24,364 nt of DNA. Source: Candidatus Nanohalarchaeota archaeon. GTDB lineage: Archaea > EX4484-52 > B79-G9. The stretch lies in assembly GCA_017610525.1 (NCBI GenBank), contig JAFCBW010000002.1, forward strand, positions 1 through 24,364, read 5' to 3'. The translations under genes were made by a program, and so were the position numbers. A model generated the notes under the pieces. The model did not search any database. It worked only from the letters and a program-made list of their open reading frames with translations, and was not told the origin of the DNA. This document shows, piece by piece, positions 6,367 through 19,732 of the stretch (the first letter of the stretch is position 1; each line of letters begins with the position of its first letter).

Positions 6367-7992
6367 CTAACCGGCAAAATCCCGCACTCTCTCGACAAAC
6401 AAATCCGAAGGAACAACAATAGTCACAGGATAACTCATAGGATCATTAAAATGAGCAACATTCCCAAATATCCTGATCTTCTGCTCATCATCAGGATTCC
6501 TAAACCGCCCCCCCTCATCTAAAAACGCCTGCGAAAACATAGAAACCACATATTGCGGCTGATTGCGCTCATAATTGCCAATAAGCACAAAACTGATTCC
6601 ACCCCCCTCAAGCAAATCAACAAAACCCTCCGCATCCCTTGGATAACCACGCACAAACCGATTAGCATACCAATAATACTGCGGAATACTGGCACCAACA
6701 ATAGACTCCCCCACAAGTGACTCAGCCTCAACAAAAGAAGACGCCTGAATCAGCGACGGATAACCAATCGCAGTACTGCGCTCAAGCTTCGGAGCAATCA
6801 CGCCGCTATAATTAAAATACACCGAAACCAAAAGAACCAGCGCACAGGCGCCAAGAGACAAATGCTCACTCTTCAAATCACGCTTCAGCCACGGATACAC
6901 AACCTTCATAAGACCCATACCCGAAAGAACAACCATAAACGGAACCCACGAAACCATCATTCTCTCCTCTTTCCATCCAAACTGGCTAAAGTACAGAAAA
7001 TTTACCAGTAAAATGATAAGACAATACACACCAAAATCCTCCCTCTTATAAACAACATACCCCACCCCAAGCACAAACATTAAAAACACGGTGATACCCA
7101 AAACAGAATAGCCCAAATTCAAATAATAATACCATGGAAACGAAGCCACACTATAAGTACTAATACGATTCTGAGCATCAAGAATACCCCCAATCGCATT
7201 TCCGGTTTCTCCCTGCACATAAATCATCCATGGAGCCAAAACAACCAAAAAAAGAATCAAAGACAAATAAACATGCTTCGACTTAAACAGGCAAGATACT
7301 TTTCTCCTGCTCCCAACCCATAAATACGCAAGATACACCGCCGCCATCACAGCAAAAAGTACAGCATTATATCTCGTAAGAAAAGAAAGCCCAAGAAGAG
7401 AACCTGCCACATAAAAATATTTTGTATTTTCATTAACCCCCACAAAAAAAAACATCGCAGACAAAAAAAACAACGCAGAATAAGTTATATCAGTCAGAGT
7501 ATTCAATGCCAGCGTAAAAAATACAGGAGTACTCGCAAGCAAAACCCCGCAAACAAGAGCAGTTTTCTTATCAGCATATTTTCTCACAAAAAAATACACT
7601 GCAAAAATAGAAAGCAACGCAAACATAATCCCTGATATCTTCGTAGTTTCATAAGACACACCAAACAATGCAAAAGCAACCGCAACAGATAAAGGATACA
7701 CAGGCAGCCGACCTGTCTGAGCCGCACCATTCAGCGCATACCCATCACCCCTCAAGACAGACCGCGCAATAGACGCATACTCCGCCTCATCCCACATAAA
7801 CATCTTATACGCGCCAAGATTAGAGAAAAAAAAGCCCCCCAGCAAAACCAACAGAACTATAACTTCCTTATTCTCAAGAATATATTTTTTAATCGCAGAT
7901 AAAACATTACCCCAATCAAAAAGCTTGGAATCATCCAACTCTCCAGAAATCCCACCATGATTCTTGACCCTTCTCAAACAAACACCCAACAA
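6367..7992 (-). CDS. GT-C fold membrane glycosyltransferase (ArnT/PMT-like); start uncertain
   Basis: WDEAEY first-loop acidic motif, RLPVYP, TDITY, LTRYN and PWYYY in a polytopic membrane protein. Confidence 0.8.
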   Translation of the reverse strand: MLGVCLRRVKNHGGISGELDDSKLFDWGNVLSAIKKYILENKEVIVLLVLLGGFFFSNLGAYKMFMWDEAEYASIARSVLRGDGYALNGAAQTGRLPVYPLSVAVAFALFGVSYETTKISGIMFALLSIFAVYFFVRKYADKKTALVCGVLLASTPVFFTLALNTLTDITYSALFFLSAMFFFVGVNENTKYFYVAGSLLGLSFLTRYNAVLFAVMAAVYLAYLWVGSRRKVSCLFKSKHVYLSLILFLVVLAPWMIYVQGETGNAIGGILDAQNRISTYSVASFPWYYYLNLGYSVLGITVFLMFVLGVGYVVYKREDFGVYCLIILLVNFLYFSQFGWKEERMMVSWVPFMVVLSGMGLMKVVYPWLKRDLKSEHLSLGACALVLLVSVYFNYSGVIAPKLERSTAIGYPSLIQASSFVEAESLVGESIVGASIPQYYWYANRFVRGYPRDAEGFVDLLEGGGISFVLIGNYERNQPQYVVSMFSQAFLDEGGRFRNPDDEQKIRIFGNVAHFNDPMSYPVTIVVPSDLFVERVRDFAG

Positions 7993-12971: not shown

Positions 12972-13904
12972 TTAAGTCCCCTCCTTCCTGCCACGCGAAA
13001 CAAGAACCCCGACAAGAGTCTCAGGCGAAAATACCCCAATCTCCGTAACAATCTCATAAATATACTCTTTCGGAGTCACATCAAAAGCAGGATTAACCAC
13101 CTTGGCACCAGTTAGCTCCCGCACACCTGCAACCTCCCTGCGCGCCCTCTCCTCAATCGGCTCAGGAAACCCAAGCGCAGTCATAGGATCATACTTATGC
13201 GTCCCGCACGCCACAATAAAAGGCACCTTATACTCAGAGGCCTCAATCGCAATCTGGTAAGTGCCAATCTTATTCACCACATCCCCCCCTGCAGTAACAG
13301 CATCCGCCCCCACAAGCACCTTCGTAGCATCCTTCATAAGGCTCGCCGACGCAGAATCAACACAATACACAACAGGTATCTTCTCAGCCAACAGTTCACG
13401 AGCAGTAATCTTCCCCTGGAAAAGCGGCCGCGTCTCCGTAACAATAACACTAAAATCCTTGCCCTGCCTCTTCGCAAAGCGCAAAATCTCAACCGCGCAA
13501 TGGCTGTGGCAATGCGTCATAACAACATCCCCATCTGAAATAAGACGCGCCCCATACTGCGCAATCTTATCAAGCATCTTCTTAGTCTCAGAAATATAAT
13601 TCCTGCAGACCGAAACAGCATACTTCCTCAACTCACCAACAGGCATCCCCTTGCGCGAAGCCACCCTGGAAACAATCAACTCCTGCCCGAACCGAAGCGC
13701 AGGCTCAGTAGGCCGAAGCCCAACAACCTCACGCGACACATTCCGCAGCTCAGAAACAAACGCACCTGAACTCCCCGCCCGCGACCCCTGCGCAACAAGC
13801 ACCAAAATCCGCGCACCAGCCACCGCCACCTTCCTCGCGCCCTGTATCTTAATGGATTTGATATCGCGCATAATCTTTTTGACCCTATCATCATTCGCAC
13901 TCAT
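12972..13904 (-). CDS. Ribose-1,5-bisphosphate isomerase (eIF2B-alpha-like family)
   Basis: IQGA, RPTEPAL, THCHS, ETRP..QG, VGADAV, NKIGT and PAFDVTP. TATA TTATAAAT at 13929-13936 favours a near-leaderless start at 13904. Confidence 0.85.
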   Translation of the reverse strand: MSANDDRVKKIMRDIKSIKIQGARKVAVAGARILVLVAQGSRAGSSGAFVSELRNVSREVVGLRPTEPALRFGQELIVSRVASRKGMPVGELRKYAVSVCRNYISETKKMLDKIAQYGARLISDGDVVMTHCHSHCAVEILRFAKRQGKDFSVIVTETRPLFQGKITARELLAEKIPVVYCVDSASASLMKDATKVLVGADAVTAGGDVVNKIGTYQIAIEASEYKVPFIVACGTHKYDPMTALGFPEPIEERARREVAGVRELTGAKVVNPAFDVTPKEYIYEIVTEIGVFSPETLVGVLVSRGRKEGT

Positions 13905-14047
13905 AACCATCCTTTTGTCCTGCAACATATTTATAACTTACAAAAACCCGCAATCAAAAAAAACCAAAAAAACAGCAGGAACTCCACACCACCCAAATAA
14001 CAACAGACCCATACTCAAAGCAAGTAACGACCCATGACCAGATAACT

Positions 14048-14096
14048 GGGAGGGTGGGGGTTAGAGGATGGACATCAACAAAGAACCAAGGGGGAA
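14048..14096 (+). repeat. Conserved intergenic G-tract motif, copy A
   Basis: 38/49 identical to 19105-19152, with all four G-tracts conserved. Confidence 0.7.
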
Positions 14097-14161
14097 ACCT
14101 AATATCAACAGCAAACACTAACAAGCAAACATTAGCAGCCAAAGAACTGCGCAAAAAACAG

Positions 14162-14737
14162 TCACCCCAACATCTTATAAATACTCCAGAACCTCTGCAA
14201 AAACGTAACAAAAGAAAGCGCAAGAATCAGATAAACAGAATAAAGAAGCGCACCGCTAAAAACACACATCCCGACCGCCCCGAAAAACAGCACCACATGC
14301 CGATCAGACCTCCCCGCAATCCCGCCATAAAACCTTTCCTTAGTAAGCGCCTGCGCCTGCGTCCCAAGATAAGACACAAGAATCAGGCAAACAAGCGTCA
14401 AAAAAACCACATCGCGCGGCATCAAAGGATTATAAGCGATCCCTACAAAAATGAAAACATCCGAAACCCGATCAAAAGTATGATCAATAAAATCCCCCCT
14501 CTTCGTCGGCTTCCACTTACCGTTCTTCGCAATCTCCCCGTCAACAATATCCAAAAAGCCATTAAGAAACAAAAAAAACGCAGCCAACAAAAACATTCCC
14601 GAAAAGAAAAAATACCCTGAAACCACAGCACATAAAAGCGCAACCGTACTCACAATATTCGGATTGACATTAACAATAAACGGCGCAACAATGCGCTTCC
14701 TCAAGCCAGGATATTTCTTCACCAACTGCACAAGCAT
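14162..14737 (-). CDS. CDP-alcohol phosphatidyltransferase (archaetidylinositol-phosphate synthase-like)
   Basis: NPN..S and the signature DIVDGEIAK...GDFIDHTFDRVSD. Confidence 0.9.
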   Translation of the reverse strand: MLVQLVKKYPGLRKRIVAPFIVNVNPNIVSTVALLCAVVSGYFFFSGMFLLAAFFLFLNGFLDIVDGEIAKNGKWKPTKRGDFIDHTFDRVSDVFIFVGIAYNPLMPRDVVFLTLVCLILVSYLGTQAQALTKERFYGGIAGRSDRHVVLFFGAVGMCVFSGALLYSVYLILALSFVTFLQRFWSIYKMLG

Positions 14738-14756
14738 AACACAACCACCCTAAAAC

Positions 14757-14996
14757 TCAAAAAATCATGAAAATTTTGGGTTAATATGAGTATTTTCAAG
14801 CTTTTTGATTGTCGATTCGTACTTCATATACAATCAAAAAATCATGAAAATTTTGGGCTAATATAAGCATTTTCAAGCTTTTTGATTGTCGATTCGTACT
14901 TCATATACAATCAAAAAATCATGAAAATTTTGGGCTAATATAAGCATTTTCATGCTTTTTGATTGTCGATTCGTACTTCATATACAATCAAAAAAT
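14757..14996. repeat. 77-bp tandem repeat, 3 units plus 9 bp, each unit made of two inverted repeats
   Basis: GTCGATTCGT recurs at 14811, 14888 and 14965 (period 77). The units differ at only a few positions. Confidence 0.95.
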
Positions 14997-15079
14997 ACCA
15001 AATAATTCTGGCAACCATTCACTCACAAACAAATATTAAAACATGAATCTTAATAAAACAAATCCAAAACACATAAAAT

Positions 15080-16105
15080 CTAACCCCATCTCCCAAGCGT
15101 AGTCTGCTTCTTCTGCTCACAGATATCATCAAGCTTGCGAAACATACTATCAACCCTCTCAGAAGAAAACCCATGCCGCACACACATAATCTCCCGGATC
15201 TTCCCTCTGTCCGCCTCCCCTTGGGTAACATCACAATCAGAAACAACCGGCGGCTTCATAAAAAACTCATGAATCTCCCGCATAGAGACATCAAACCCCC
15301 ACTCAACATTCCGCTCAAGCTCAGAAAGATTCTTGTGCTTCAAGACAAGCTTAAGCGCATTCTTAGGCCCAACCCCCTTAATCCCCCCCGGATTATAATC
15401 TGTACCGATAAGAATCCCAAGATTAACCAGCTGCTCACGAGTCAACTTCAACTCAGCAAGAACCACTGAAAGCTCAATCATCTCCGGCTTAACCTCCCTG
15501 TAGACACTCGCACCCGCAACCTTCCTCTTCCCCGAAACATTCAGGTTCCGCACAAGCCTAGGCGCCCCAAACAAAAGCGTATCATAATCACTCGAAGCAA
15601 CAGCATAGGCCATCCCCTTGCGCGCCATATAAGCTGCCTGCGCCTCACCCTCTGAGGGCGCCTCAACCACAGGAATCCCAAGCGCGCACAAAAGCTCCTT
15701 AGACTCAAGCAACATCCCATCCGTAATCTCAACCGACGCCTGTGCATACTTCTTCGCATCAGAAACCCGCCCCTCATCACGCGCCTCCTCCCACTTCCTC
15801 TTGGCATCCGCCCGCGCCTTGCGCCTCACTGAATTCGTACTCGCCTTAAACTCCGGCGGCTTGCCATCAAACACATAAACAAGACCCACACCTGCCTGCA
15901 TAAGATTAAGAGACCTGTAAAAAATCCCCGAAAGGTGGCTCGTAACATCCCCATTCTCATCCTTAAGCGGCGTCCCGTCATACTGGCGGATAATCGAAAG
16001 AAACTGGTAAAGCGTATTCAGCGCATCCACAGCAAGCGTCTTGCCACGGAAATCCTCTGCAGAAACCTCCCTTCTCGAAACAATATCAGCAATCTTCACA
16101 CCCAT
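15080..16105 (-). CDS. fen: Flap endonuclease 1
   Basis: MGV start, DALNTLYQF, VFDGKPP, APSEGEAQAAY, SSDYD.LLFG, GTDYNPGG and a C-terminal PIP box QTTLGRW. Confidence 0.97.
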   Translation of the reverse strand: MGVKIADIVSRREVSAEDFRGKTLAVDALNTLYQFLSIIRQYDGTPLKDENGDVTSHLSGIFYRSLNLMQAGVGLVYVFDGKPPEFKASTNSVRRKARADAKRKWEEARDEGRVSDAKKYAQASVEITDGMLLESKELLCALGIPVVEAPSEGEAQAAYMARKGMAYAVASSDYDTLLFGAPRLVRNLNVSGKRKVAGASVYREVKPEMIELSVVLAELKLTREQLVNLGILIGTDYNPGGIKGVGPKNALKLVLKHKNLSELERNVEWGFDVSMREIHEFFMKPPVVSDCDVTQGEADRGKIREIMCVRHGFSSERVDSMFRKLDDICEQKKQTTLGRWG

Positions 16106-16229
16106 AAGACACACCACACCAACAGACAACCTGCCAACAGATAACTATACCTAATAATACCCAAAAAAAAATATAAACATAATGCCTGCAAAAGAACAGC
16201 ACAAAAAAACAAATATTAGAAATACTTAC

Positions 16230-16493
16230 TCAAATCAAAGTAACACCGGTATTCTCCGCATCCTGTACTCCCTCAACATCGCGAAGCTTACCCTCAATCT
16301 TCTCCAGAAGTCCGCCCTCATCAGCCATAAGAACAAGCACAATCAACTGCTTCAATCCAAAAGCAATATCCTCCTGCTTCATCTCCTTAATATCACCAAT
16401 ATCAAGCTCCCTGATACGGGACTCAACAGCATTCAGATCAACCTCAACCGACTCAGGCATAACCCTGAAAGTCGCAAGCACATTACTACCCAT
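16230..16493 (-). CDS. ef1b: Archaeal elongation factor 1-beta
   Basis: VMPES.EVDL and IAFGLKQL motifs, GGTGA RBS, and adjacency to the Zn-finger gene. Confidence 0.93.
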   Translation of the reverse strand: MGSNVLATFRVMPESVEVDLNAVESRIRELDIGDIKEMKQEDIAFGLKQLIVLVLMADEGGLLEKIEGKLRDVEGVQDAENTGVTLI

Positions 16494-16507
16494 AAAACAT
16501 CACCACA

Positions 16508-16672
16508 TCAGGGTCCGACAAACCCGCACTTTTTACACGTATAATTATTCGAAGTAATCTTACACTTACTGCACCTGACAATCATCTCACCACATGCAGG
16601 GCACTTAAACTTAACCGAATGCTCACCGGGCGTAATACTGGCACCGCAACCATTACACGACATATCATCCAT
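16508..16672 (-). CDS. Small zinc-finger protein (HVO_2753/DUF1610-like)
   Basis: Four CxxC pairs ending in CGFVGP, directly upstream of ef1b as in other archaea. Start chosen by GGTGA spacing, with 16684 or 16708 as alternatives. Confidence 0.85.
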   Translation of the reverse strand: MDDMSCNGCGASITPGEHSVKFKCPACGEMIVRCSKCKITSNNYTCKKCGFVGP

Positions 16673-16740
16673 ATCTTTCACCATTAAATCAATAAAAATC
16701 ACGAACAAATCATGAATTTACTTAATATACCCCCTAAACC

Positions 16741-16748
16741 TTTATAAA
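16741..16748 (+). promoter_or_regulatory. TATA box of tRNA-Arg
   Basis: TTTATAAA about 30 nt upstream of tRNA position 1. Confidence 0.7.
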
Positions 16749-16777
16749 CTTTGCCAATACACATCCATCCATAGTGT

Positions 16778-16892
16778 GCCCTCATAGTCCAGTGGATAAG
16801 ATGCAGCCTTGCGGAGGCTGTGGCCCGGGTTCGAGACGCGAAAAAAGCAGATAAACCCTGCAAAACGCGTGAAAATCCCGGTGAGGGCACCA
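16778..16892 (+). tRNA. tRNA-Arg(GCG) with a 40-nt intron at 59/60 (16836-16875); CCA encoded
   Basis: Acceptor stem GCCCTCA/TGAGGGC, anticodon arm CAGCC-TTGCGGA-GGCTG, T stem CCGGG/CCCGG. BHB: helix TTCG/TGAA with bulges AGA and AAT. The spliced T-loop is TTCGAGT. Confidence 0.93.
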
Positions 16893-16938
16893 CACCCCTT
16901 CTATAACTTATATAAACATTAGCCCCCAATAATTAAAA

Positions 16939-17457
16939 ATGCCATCAGAGAAACTAACAGAAAGCGACATAAACCGTCTGAAAGGCGTAGTCGGACTAGG
17001 CACAAGCAACCCCGCACCACAGGAAAACCAGACAGGCAAAATCATGCCGACACCTGTAAACGCGCCAAACAGAACACATGTAAACAACCTGATAGAACCA
17101 ACTAAAACACTTAACACAAAATCTAAAACACAGGTAGAAACCGAACTATTCGTAAAAATCGACGAACACACAGAAGTCGCAAGACAACTCTTGGATGCAA
17201 AAAAAGACATAAAATACATAGCAGACACTATTTCTTTAGTGGGAAAAGCAGAAAAACTAAAATCAGAAGCAATCGAAAGGCTCGAATCCCACCTGAACAC
17301 CCTTGACGAAAAACTCGCAGACGTGGAAGGAAAACTAACTGTCCCGGATGGCCTCGAAATACCCAACGAGGGCGTAGACCTCCAGATGTCAAGCGACGTC
17401 TCAAACCTCCACAGGACACTTGAAAACCTGAAAGACGAACTAAGCCACCTTGACTGA
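16939..17457 (+). CDS. Hypothetical protein with a low-complexity N-terminus and coiled-coil C-terminus
   Basis: 172-aa ORF with TTATATAA at 16908-16915, an LFVKIDEH motif and heptad-like helices. Confidence 0.7.
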   Translation: MPSEKLTESDINRLKGVVGLGTSNPAPQENQTGKIMPTPVNAPNRTHVNNLIEPTKTLNTKSKTQVETELFVKIDEHTEVARQLLDAKKDIKYIADTISLVGKAEKLKSEAIERLESHLNTLDEKLADVEGKLTVPDGLEIPNEGVDLQMSSDVSNLHRTLENLKDELSHLD

Positions 17458-17496
17458 TAAAATCACATTTAAAAAAGCCTGTGTATAAGAAATATC

Positions 17497-17823
17497 ATGG
17501 CGCTTTTGTTTGGTGTTACTGTCGGTATTCTTGCCATTGTCGCAATTCTCATAATTTCTGCGCTGCCGCTTTATTTTGCAGTAAAGTTTTTAGGCGGCAA
17601 AGCAACGATTTTTAAAGTGCTCATGGTCAATCTTATTGTCGGCGTCATTGGCGCAGCATTGGATATGCCGATTATCGGATTCGTTCTGCTCTTGTTTGTA
17701 TACAAAGAAGTATTCAAGATGTCATGGCTTTCCGCATTTCTGGCATGGATCTTGCAGTTCATAGTTGCAGGAGCACTTTTATTCCTTGCATCTTTCTTAA
17801 GTCTGGGAGTTGCTATTCTCTGA
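17497..17823 (+). CDS. Small multi-pass membrane protein
   Basis: 108 aa, almost entirely hydrophobic, with TTTAAAAA at 17468-17475. Confidence 0.75.
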   Translation: MALLFGVTVGILAIVAILIISALPLYFAVKFLGGKATIFKVLMVNLIVGVIGAALDMPIIGFVLLLFVYKEVFKMSWLSAFLAWILQFIVAGALLFLASFLSLGVAIL

Positions 17824-17831
17824 GACAACAC

Positions 17832-18275
17832 TCACTTTTCAACCAGCCCGCAAACAACATCAACTGCCCGCAAAACCCCCTTCCTACACGCATCACTCAA
17901 CTCACACCCAAATCCCACAGACTCAGGCTGCACCCCCACAAAAACAACCTCACAATCCGCACTTCGCTCCAGGTACCCAATAAAAAGCGACAACGGCAAC
18001 TGATGCGTAGAATGCAGAAATCCCTTTATCCGGGAAACATCAACAACCTCAACCGCCCCAGGTTCCGCCCCCAGCTCAACAGCATCAACAACAATCACAC
18101 GACACGCCCCAAACCCAACAACCTTATCCAGAAAATTCTCAGGCGCACTCCCGCAATCAACAAAAAGCAACTCCTCACGATCACCAAACTTCTCCCGCAA
18201 CCTGTCAACAACAACAGGACCAACCGCATCATCACCGCGCAGCCTGTTCCCAACCCCGCAAACAACACATTTCAT
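17832..18275 (-). CDS. Hydrogenase maturation endopeptidase (HycI-like)
   Basis: GVGNRLRGDDAVG, DCGSAPEN, IVVDAV, STHQLPL and VGVQP. Start moved to MKCVVCG. Confidence 0.9.
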   Translation of the reverse strand: MKCVVCGVGNRLRGDDAVGPVVVDRLREKFGDREELLFVDCGSAPENFLDKVVGFGACRVIVVDAVELGAEPGAVEVVDVSRIKGFLHSTHQLPLSLFIGYLERSADCEVVFVGVQPESVGFGCELSDACRKGVLRAVDVVCGLVEK

Positions 18276-18294
18276 AAAAAACAAACATCCTGAC

Positions 18295-18678
18295 CTAACA
18301 CAACTTCTTCCCGACCCTTCGCACCGAACAATCAATACCAAGAACCCCTGCAAAAACCATCATCAAAGCCCCGGCAAAAAAACCGACACCAAAAACCAGC
18401 CCAAAAAGCCCAAGAACCGCAAGCATCCTACCCCCGGTCCTCCTGTCCTCATACTCAAACACATACAGCCCGTAAAACGCAAGCACCCCGAAAAGCACCC
18501 ACACAAGCCCAACCACACGAATATACCCAACCACACTCAAAGGCATTAACAAAACATACAAAACAATCCCCGAAACAATAGAAACAACCCCCGCAACACT
18601 GCCAAAAACATGAACATCATCCCCCCTCCGATGAACATGCGCAGTCTCTGCCAAAAAAAACCTCTCCAAAAATCCCAT
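18295..18678 (-). CDS. Hypothetical membrane protein (about 4 TM) with a His-containing N-terminus
   Basis: Hydrophobic segments after AHVHRRGDDVH. It sits 19 nt upstream of the HycI-like gene and follows minus-strand codon bias. Confidence 0.6.
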   Translation of the reverse strand: MGFLERFFLAETAHVHRRGDDVHVFGSVAGVVSIVSGIVLYVLLMPLSVVGYIRVVGLVWVLFGVLAFYGLYVFEYEDRRTGGRMLAVLGLFGLVFGVGFFAGALMMVFAGVLGIDCSVRRVGKKLC

Positions 18679-18701
18679 AACAATAACTTCGCACACACTA
18701 A

Positions 18702-18711
18702 TATATATAAA
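18702..18711. promoter_or_regulatory. Probable bidirectional TATA element
   Basis: TATATATAAA lies 21-23 nt from both divergent starts (18678 and 18733). Confidence 0.55.
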
Positions 18712-18732
18712 TTCTCAAACCAAAAAAACAAT

Positions 18733-19050
18733 ATGCACGAACAATCCGCAGTCCAGACAATAATAGAAACCCTAAAAACAACAAACCCAAAAAAAGCAAA
18801 AATAAAACTAGGCATGATGCGCGGCGAAAAATCAAGAATTCTCGACATATTCAAAAACCAGGTACAAGACACCCCCTTAGAACAAATCAAACTGGAAATA
18901 GAACAAACACCCGTAACCTCAAGATGCCAATGCGGCTTCGAAGGGACAGTAGACATCCCCGGCCACGTCCACTTCATAAGATGCCCTAAATGCAGCAAAA
19001 TAATCGACCCCCTCACAGGAAACGAACTGGAAATAACCACAGAAGAATAA
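18733..19050 (+). CDS. hypA: Hydrogenase nickel incorporation protein HypA
   Basis: N-terminal MHE motif, Zn ligands RCQCG and RCPKC, and C-terminal TGNELEI. Start moved to MHE. Confidence 0.9.
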   Translation: MHEQSAVQTIIETLKTTNPKKAKIKLGMMRGEKSRILDIFKNQVQDTPLEQIKLEIEQTPVTSRCQCGFEGTVDIPGHVHFIRCPKCSKIIDPLTGNELEITTEE

Positions 19051-19104
19051 CCAACCGCCCAGTACTTGTGTCACATGACCACAAATAATTCATACTCTAA
19101 AATC

Positions 19105-19152
19105 GGGTGGGCGGGGGCTCGAGGACGGACTCCACCAAACACAAAGGGGGAA
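19105..19152 (+). repeat. Conserved intergenic G-tract motif, copy B
   Basis: 38/49 identical to 14048-14096. Confidence 0.7.
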
Positions 19153-19219
19153 TAAACAGCACTTTACATTCAACCCAAATAAAACACGAAAAGTAACCTA
19201 AAACAGTAGCAAGACAACT

Positions 19220-19278
19220 CATGTGTGCGCTTGAGCGAAGCGAAACGCACCTAATGATCAACCTTTTACAAGGTTGAT
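19220..19278. repeat. REP-like dispersed element, copy 2, abutting the tRNA-Leu 3' end
   Basis: 9-bp hairpin 19257-19265/19270-19278 (GUAA loop on the minus strand), and a GTGCG/CGCAC stem enclosing GCGAAGC. Confidence 0.7.
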
Positions 19279-19463
19279 GCAGGGGAAGGGATTCGAACCC
19301 TCGAACTCCTACGAGACTGGATTTCTTAAAATCATCGCATACGCGCACGCATGCTCAGCACTCAAAAACTTATTGAATGTATTCTTGAGTCCAGCGCCTC
19401 TAACCCGCAAAAAAACAGGCAAAAAGCCTGCTAAAATACTTTGGCCAGCTGGGCGACCCCTGC
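19278..19463 (-). tRNA. tRNA-Leu(CAA) with two introns: 41 nt at 21/22 (19440-19400) and 61 nt at 37/38 (19383-19323); CCA not encoded
   Basis: Spliced sequence GCAGGGGTCGCCCAGCTGGCCAAAGGCGCTGGACTCAAGATCCAGTCTCGTAGGAGTTCGAGGGTTCGAATCCCTTCCCCTGCA folds as a class II cloverleaf. There is a TATA-like TTTTTAAG at 19492-19499. Confidence 0.92.
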
Positions 19464-19732
19464 AAGTGATAAACTATAATAGACCCAAAACCTTAAAAAT
19501 CATTTGGCTTGTGTGAGGGATATGCATACTATACTCAAGGCATGAAATAATTAGGAGCAAACATCACCCAAAACCAAATTGCCTCAATCTATCCGGGCAA
19601 ACCTTCAGTTTGATGGATCCTAAAATTGCAGAGCAATTTTAAGGATATGGGAATGCACTCTACTCAATTTATTAGTGCATTCACCATACCTCTCACAAAA
19701 ACACCAAAAAAATACCCTGAAGCATCCGCACC

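Follow-up and report, generated by a model that had tools for sequence, protein, structure and literature searches.

Small repeats that lie in frame within housekeeping genes are classically an oddity of Rickettsia, and a role as mRNA barrier is the known model for the REP sequences of Proteobacteria. Elements of the IS200/IS605 type, for their part, do not make target duplications. The Rickettsia palindromic elements (RPEs) are, in the accessible part of the published account, short, non-autonomous and lineage-restricted repeats, which occupy spacers and, with unusual frequency, lie in frame within housekeeping genes that are unrelated to each other, the products of which gain a peptide segment (PMC10969869).

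The G-tract repeat described here (G-element) resembles RPEs in its repeated in-frame insertion into unrelated genes, which applies to six of its 26 copies. RPEs are, however, about 150 bp long, palindromic and bacterial, whereas the G-element measures 55-110 nt, occurs in a DPANN archaeon and contains no palindrome; it also differs from them in being defined by G-tracts, by a lock to one strand and by conserved Gs at orthologous spacers. As with the REP/BIME of Proteobacteria, intercistronic repeats form mosaics of modules, copy B lying beside the modules P, H1 and H2, and the same spacers carry different modules in different species. In contrast to REPs, which are hairpins, linked to RAYT and present in both orientations, the G-element has no hairpin, no linked Y1 gene and a single orientation, and no repeat module lies within 1.5 kb of a Y1 (RAYT) gene in the genus. 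With MITEs it has in common that it is small, multicopy and non-coding, with direct repeats flanking its clean junctions, but terminal inverted repeats are missing, the duplications at the clean junctions vary in length from 9 to 17 nt and no parent IS with matching ends was found. It is no better accommodated among IS200/IS605-derived elements (PATEs), as subterminal hairpins are missing and the clean junctions carry duplications. Polar chromosome motifs of the KOPS or Chi type are short, frequent along the whole chromosome and skewed with replication; the G-element is skewed as well, yet its 55-110-nt unit is represented by just 26 copies, several of them on the same contigs, and its presence differs between species. 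In its behaviour the element is closest to RPEs and its spacer mosaics resemble REP/BIME; the structural definitions of MITEs, RPEs, REPs and IS200/IS605 derivatives do not apply, because it has neither a palindrome nor inverted ends. The best explanation appears to be a genus-specific, small, non-autonomous insertion cassette of RPE-like behaviour with a G-tract core under selection, to which we assign a probability of roughly 0.6.

Results

Two copies of a G-tract motif and their surroundings

The window, i.e., the whole stretch of 24,364 nt that was analysed, is contig C29 of a 1.28-Mb archaeal MAG, which consists of 206 contigs and is 81% complete (G000). The congeneric genomes used for comparison are labelled G001-G003, G005 and G006, with G001 being the closest relative of G000. 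The following features of the window are referred to:

12972 to 13928, minus strand: IF-2B-family gene (PF01008, E 1.2e-72); its start (13928) lies 120 nt from copy A, which is upstream of it
14035 to 14113, plus strand: copy A, extent given by the family profile (E 2.5e-14); the orthologous spacer is filled in G001, G003 and G005 and empty in G002 and G006
14048 to 14096, plus strand: copy A, core as originally flagged (GGG-A-GGG-T-GGGGG, a 29-nt spacer, GGGGG-AA)
14162 to 14737, minus strand: CDP-alcohol phosphatidyltransferase gene (PF01066); stop 66 nt from copy A
18610 to 19050, plus strand: hypA (PF01155), encoded on the motif-bearing strand; 55 nt separate its stop from copy B, which follows downstream
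19086 to 19166, plus strand: copy B, extent given by the family profile (E 1.8e-18)
19105 to 19152, plus strand: copy B, core as originally flagged
19191 to 19276, plus strand: second repeat family beside copy B, with module P (19191-19204), hairpin H1 (19225-19250) and hairpin H2 (19251-19276)
19279 to 19464, minus strand: tRNA-Leu(CAA) with two introns, read by eye; 3' end 2 nt from hairpin H2

The original prediction had placed two copies of a four-G-tract motif at 14048-14096 and 19105-19152, where both sequences read as quoted. Globally aligned over 49 columns, with a single 1-nt gap, the two sequences showed the claimed 38 identities; their G-tracts are all preserved, in contrast to the 1-nt linkers. 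Two occurrences of the 13-mer GGGNGGGNGGGGG, each on the plus strand, were found in the window against a chance expectation of 0.04, and none of 100 dinucleotide-preserving shuffles contained it two or more times. The G depletion ascribed to this strand is found in every 1-kb bin of the window (GC skew -0.20 to -0.57); AT skew ranges from +0.16 to +0.49 across all these bins, and the skew is independent of gene strand, Pfam-supported genes being present on both strands. The placement past the 3' ends of minus-strand genes was also correct, copy A lying 66 nt past a stop and copy B 126 nt past the 3' end of tRNA-Leu(CAA). On its other side copy B follows hypA, a plus-strand gene whose stop is 55 nt away. 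The orthologue of copy B in G001 (L034) differs at 3 of 52 bases, two of which are linkers. Stops interrupt the motif in two of three frames in copy A and in all three in copy B, so that both loci are non-coding.

The tRNA-Leu(CAA) gene next to copy B (19279-19464), whose two introns interrupt the D-loop and the canonical position 37/38, escaped both ARAGORN in its default setting, which without intron mode reported no tRNA in the window, and Rfam at the gathering score. The intron mode of ARAGORN returned 16 tRNAs for the whole assembly, so that many tRNAs are probably multi-intron in this organism.

A 77-nt unit is repeated 3.1 times at 14757-14996 with 97% identity. Public contigs of three runs contain a form shorter by 233 nt (joint 14754 to 14988), and the copy number of this unit therefore varies in nature. 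Variation of the 77-nt tandem array and of the P/H1 modules is suggested by short-sided joints in public contigs. No clean empty-site joint for copy A or copy B was found in the public contigs of 4 DNA runs (13500-19600).

A repeat family confined to one genus

When the genome was scanned with a profile and its relatives with the strict motif, further copies and conservation were found, and the pair proved to be members of a family of 26 loci. A first nhmmer profile gave 25 matches at E<0.1 in G000, and 32 came from a refined profile, for which 38 copies had been used; these 32 correspond to the 26 loci and one solitary 3' part. With about 55-110 nt the unit exceeds the 49 nt originally flagged. 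It is made up of an optional A/C-rich 5' block, GGGNGGGNGGGGG-CTCGAGGAYGGAC, approximately 15 nt, AAGGGGGA and a short A/T-rich tail; the 5' block (about AAAACATAACCACAAATC) and the tail (about TATACTTATATCACAACAA) are present in many copies. Under the best explanation, copies A and B are ordinary intergenic members of this insertion family.

When up to 2 mismatches are allowed, G000 contains 19 instances of the strict motif, and six of its seven congeners contain 6-11 each. At the same setting it is absent from the seventh (G002) and from 33 genomes of 12 other genera of the same family or order, and a reversed-pattern control had zero occurrences in every genome scanned (the genus and the 33 others). 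Among 185,579 species genomes (one per species) 31 exact matches were obtained, 21 of them in 6 archaeal MAGs with multiple copies each. Each of the remaining 10 is the single match of a bacterial MAG with 65-77% GC, and these have the pattern alone in common. Plasmid and phage collections gave no match to the element, and viral contigs gave a single one, GC-rich and judged to be chance. The literature on strand skew in Pacearchaeota/DPANN yielded no description of the element. The statement that no named element is like it agrees with the absence of an Rfam family and of plasmid or phage matches.

A small non-coding RNA gene on either strand would account for a conserved intergenic block of about 80 nt, and the minus strand does have an A/T-rich box upstream and T-runs downstream. 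Yet Rfam gave no match to the element in the window (gathering score), in 13700-19700 (E up to 10) or in 11 contigs comprising 128 kb (gathering score), the rows returned being chance-level miRNA or snoRNA and one tRNA and nothing else. Consensus folding of the element family (RNAalifold) found 0 pairs, DNA folding of both strands was no better than that of shuffles (z -0.17 to -1.22), and neither terminal inverted repeats nor a hairpin or palindrome were seen in the family alignment and by folding. As some copies are moreover translated inside genes, and as the nested inserts described below would put T6 terminators within a minus-strand RNA, such a gene is very improbable. A reading of the motif as tRNA or split tRNA was dismissed on inspection.

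Filled and empty sites

Comparison of orthologous sites shows the element to be present in some species and missing in others. The PPDK gene of G000 and G003 carries 72 extra nt (24 codons) within the PEP-utilizers_C domain, which G005 and G002 do not have; the insert begins at the first G and is bounded on both sides by CAAAAGACT. In the YjeF_N gene of G000 and G005 there is a 78-nt insert bounded by CATCACAAsAAyAA, and the site is uninterrupted in the closer relative G001 and in four other genomes. To explain why G000 and G005 are filled and the closer G001 is empty, one has to assume that a copy was precisely lost or that the same site was hit twice. A GT4 glycosyltransferase gene contains a 108-nt insert in G001 and G003, the same 108 nt plus a nested 75-nt H1-H2 unit in G000, and an empty site in G005, G002 and G006. 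In a Mbh/Nuo-type operon (90-95% identity), G001 is without both copies of G000, namely a 69-nt insert inside the NuoA-like gene and a 90-nt insert directly after the ATG of the NuoB-like gene. A sixth in-gene copy, located in a loop of a PMT_2-type transferase, was recognised by translation.

Spacers behave in the same way. The spacer of copy A is filled in G000, G001, G003 and G005, and those of G006 and G002 measure 63-84 nt and are element-free. The junction of the large and small acetolactate-synthase subunit genes contains the G-element in G000, hairpin modules in G001 and G003, and nothing in G002.

Altogether, six of the 26 copies are in frame inside genes (PPDK, YjeF_N, GT4, PMT_2-type transferase, NuoA-like and NuoB-like), and Pfam domains run across the insertions in PPDK, YjeF_N and GT4. 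All five measured in-gene inserts (72, 78, 108, 69 and 90 nt) are multiples of three, at a chance of (1/3)^5, so these inserts are read through and not spliced. The antiporter-like (Proton_antipo_M) gene that precedes the Nuo-like inserts in G000 (C181, about 6610-6690; L020) contains an older, decayed G-element copy, which is seen in degraded form across all genus genomes compared. Old insertions may be hidden in many proteins as Gly-rich loops.

The in-gene copies use three different reading frames and encode Gly-rich peptides, for example WEGGGSG and WVGGGSG. In the GT4 copy of G001 a different frame is used between two compensating 1-nt indels, and the G-tracts are intact. Three frames, together with this change of frame under retention of the tracts, indicate conservation at the nucleotide level. 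The earlier argument that a 1-nt indel excludes conservation as protein is thus valid for copies A and B and does not extend to the family, other copies being translated in three frames. In-frame insertion and Gly-rich products are what a conserved peptide-coding module, be it a mini-ORF or a domain insert, would lead one to expect. However, the use of three frames, the frame shift with preserved tracts in the GT4 copy of G001, a stop inside the motif in one frame of copy A, and linker 2 being a synonymous third position in just one of three frames make such a module hardly credible.

Direct repeats of 9, about 11, 14 and 17 nt, all A-rich, flank the clean junctions (CAAAAGACT, CATCACAAsAAyAA, about CGCACAAAAGA and a 17-mer in L100). 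Target duplication is supported by this handful of clean junctions and does barely better than mismatched flank pairs across the family (mean flanking repeat 7.58 vs 7.15, p=0.047). Both the repeat length and the 5' extent are variable, which does not agree with a standard DDE or IS200/IS605 mechanism.

Conservation of the G-tracts

Constraint was assessed for 10 orthologous pairs from six loci, the pairs being non-independent and the loci few. Between these pairs tract Gs differ at 7 of 157 positions, linkers at 7 of 20 and other element positions at 62 of 345; for tract Gs versus the other positions of these 10 non-independent pairs, the Fisher odds ratio is 0.21 (p=2e-5). At three intergenic loci (7 pairs, first three tracts scored) none of 77 tract Gs changed, compared to 4 of 14 linkers, 4 of 72 other element Gs and 25 of 186 element positions other than G. 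In the flanks of these loci, the alignments of which are gappy (104 gap columns), 46 of 84 Gs and 209 of 841 other positions changed. In the three intergenic ortholog sets G thus changes faster than any other base in the flanks, and more slowly than any other within the element. Loss of tract Gs is more frequent in in-gene copies (5/45), and a G-tract is broken in 8 of the 26 G000 copies. Also among paralogues tracts are conserved and linkers variable. The ortholog contrast, which is the best evidence in this respect, argues at the sequence level that the G-runs matter where they sit.

What the runs could form is suggested by their spacing. The pattern G3-N-G3-N-G5, 27-31 nt, G3-5 provides four runs of at least three Gs on one strand. 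Short first and second loops with a third loop of up to 40 nt fit 14 copies, and 4 copies fit canonical loops of 1-7 nt in a 1-1-3 version (...CTC-GGGG). In the seven copies with a 75-190-nt nested insert, this insert would form a very long loop of a candidate G-quadruplex. According to the part of a review that was accessible, two very short loops make a long third loop tolerable, and stability that is lost through a long loop can be regained by hairpins within it (PMC12650012). The G-element resembles these structures in having two 1-nt loops and one long loop, but inserts of 75-190 nt exceed the loop lengths discussed in that part of the work (PMC12650012). A G-quadruplex candidate or a protein-binding site is plausible from the sequence.

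In a few copies of related genomes (L096, L105/L108, L110) the distal G-run (AAGGAGGAA, GGGGAA, GAGGT) is located 7-13 nt upstream of an ATG, a position from which it could double as a Shine-Dalgarno sequence.

Strand orientation

The G-poor, A-rich strand carries 25 of the 26 copies (31 of 32 profile matches); the sole exception sits at a contig end (C156) beside a gene for a Xer-type integrase. This strand has the composition A.343, C.269, G.161 and T.227 (181 of 206 contigs). Although just 4,350 of 22,149 runs of at least three Gs are found on this strand, 18 of 22 GGG[ACT]GGG[ACT]GGG triads lie on it. By our own tally 22 of the 26 copies are co-directional with the downstream gene or the host CDS, the long ORFs being divided 278:273 between the strands. 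Both biases, the one relative to skew and the one relative to gene direction, are real. In no copy other than copy A do both neighbours lie on the opposite strand.

A-rich 10-mers number 17,861 on the G-poor strand versus 1,082 on the other and are thus 16.5 times commoner there. Since the clean junctions are A-rich too, a need for an A-rich target could explain the strand lock; if this target had to be on the strand of the element itself, no further factor would be required for the orientation to follow the skew. The gene-direction bias would arise if antisense insertions in transcription units were purged, which is probable. A replication-coupled single-strand mechanism is possible. The sign of the skew changes at about 5500 of C201 (L143), in a 700-nt spacer between diverging genes that are both on the G-rich strand, and also on C89 (L144). 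None of the contigs of G000 has G-elements on both sides of a skew switch. On C24 (L145), at about 750-1400, a long AT-rich spacer containing ORB-like repeats lies ahead of the orc1/cdc6 gene, and the GC skew does not change sign there.

The extreme skew, being independent of gene strand, also reshapes proteins, with K/N/T-rich genes on one strand and V/G/F-rich genes on the other.

A fixed, non-mobile regulatory site of the host, either a G-quadruplex or a protein-binding site with a function in termination, replication or segregation, would agree with tracts that are conserved while linkers vary, with an orientation strictly tied to strand skew, and with the position of many copies 27-72 nt past a stop codon. 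Nonetheless, orthologous sites differ in presence and absence among close species, six copies lie within coding sequences, and sister genera with the same kind of genome do not have the element. The copies also number only 26 and are clustered on few contigs, and so cannot act as a chromosome-wide polarity signal. We consider a fixed site of this kind unlikely. The role in termination, replication or segregation that had been proposed for the motif is thereby left without support, since presence and absence at orthologous sites and in-frame copies in at least six genes argue against it.

Nested hairpin modules and the search for a partner

Seven loci of the G-element are split at one fixed point, between CTCGAG and GGAC, by an insert of 75-190 nt that consists of an A-rich leader and the hairpin modules H1 and H2, the same modules that adjoin copy B. 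The second family to which these modules (P/H3, H1 and H2) belong comprises about 53 H2, 17 H1 and 23 P sites genome-wide and is strand-locked as the G-element is. Compensatory changes mark both hairpins into which its H3-H2 unit folds: among 21 distinct copies pair 11-19 is CG in 13, GC in 5 and AU in 2, and pair 42-55 is AU in 10 and GC in 11. Inside genes the H-module nest leaves the frame intact. Readings of the H modules as K-turn, C/D-box or hammerhead, considered by eye, were rejected, as the motifs are misaligned and Rfam is silent. A reading of the nested insert as BHB intron was rejected likewise; there is no helix, and the inserts remain in frame.

A search of G000 (81% complete) found no Y1, RT or rve match. 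The single TnpB gene (contig C120) and the single DDE gene (DDE_Tnp_1 search; contig C61) of this genome share no repeat with the element. Contig C61 (L094), which carries the only DDE transposase gene of G000, measures 2.3 kb and has, unlike the rest of the bin, no strand skew (-0.01); it is probably a foreign contig introduced by binning. Y1 genes are present in three of eight genus genomes, including the motif-free G002, and RT in one of eight, and no repeat module lies within 1.5 kb of any Y1 gene of the genus. A convincing autonomous partner is accordingly lacking among the TnpB, Y1, RT, DDE_Tnp_1 and rve genes recognised by sequence.

These results bear on the idea that the G-element is the relic of a single-strand DNA transposon of the IS200/IS605 or REP/RAYT type, the orientation of which was set by insertion into the lagging-strand template. 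Such an origin would be in line with the strand lock relative to skew, with the neighbouring H modules being true hairpins with compensatory changes and with the Y1 transposase genes in three of eight genus genomes. The G-element itself, however, has no hairpin, and its clean junctions carry 9-17-nt duplications. Y1 is absent from G000 and from four other carriers, no module lies beside any Y1 gene, and the co-orientation of 22 of 26 copies with genes would not be predicted. Taken together this origin appears doubtful, with only a small chance of being correct.

Discussion

The insertion cassette favoured here would be mobilised in trans. Its copies lie directly behind stop codons within operon spacers as well as in frame within genes, in which the element is read as a Gly-rich loop in any of three frames. 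Formation of a structure, or the binding of a factor, may be the reason why its G-tract core is kept. Of the possible structures a G-quadruplex would be the likeliest, having two loops of 1 nt and a single long one, and it would form either in single-stranded DNA or in the sense transcript. As for the role of the intergenic copies, an intercistronic RNA barrier or stabiliser comparable to the REP hairpins is preferred by analogy, albeit with low confidence.

A more far-reaching version of this explanation is that the element represents a new prokaryotic cassette, in which the quadruplex, as the only conserved feature, is what the mobilising machinery recognises, and which was later selected as a G-quadruplex counterpart of REP. 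The long loop would then tolerate the nested hairpin modules, and in A-rich, G-starved transcripts the structure would act as a barrier at, or stabiliser of, RNA 3' ends. We regard this version as tentative and rather improbable at present, though worth stating.

For the cassette as such, RPE-like behaviour in a DPANN archaeon, by an element with neither hairpin nor inverted ends, broadens the range of sequences known to act in this way. In skewed DPANN genomes it also serves as a warning for annotation, as Gly-rich "loops" in enzymes may be repeat insertions. The contrast between orthologs amounts to a natural experiment, according to which the G-runs would do something in a place where mutation pressure erases G on that strand. 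The archaeal biology of G-quadruplexes thereby gains a concrete and cheaply testable 49-mer, and the family would be of still greater interest if the quadruplex were real and were itself the feature that is recognised or selected.
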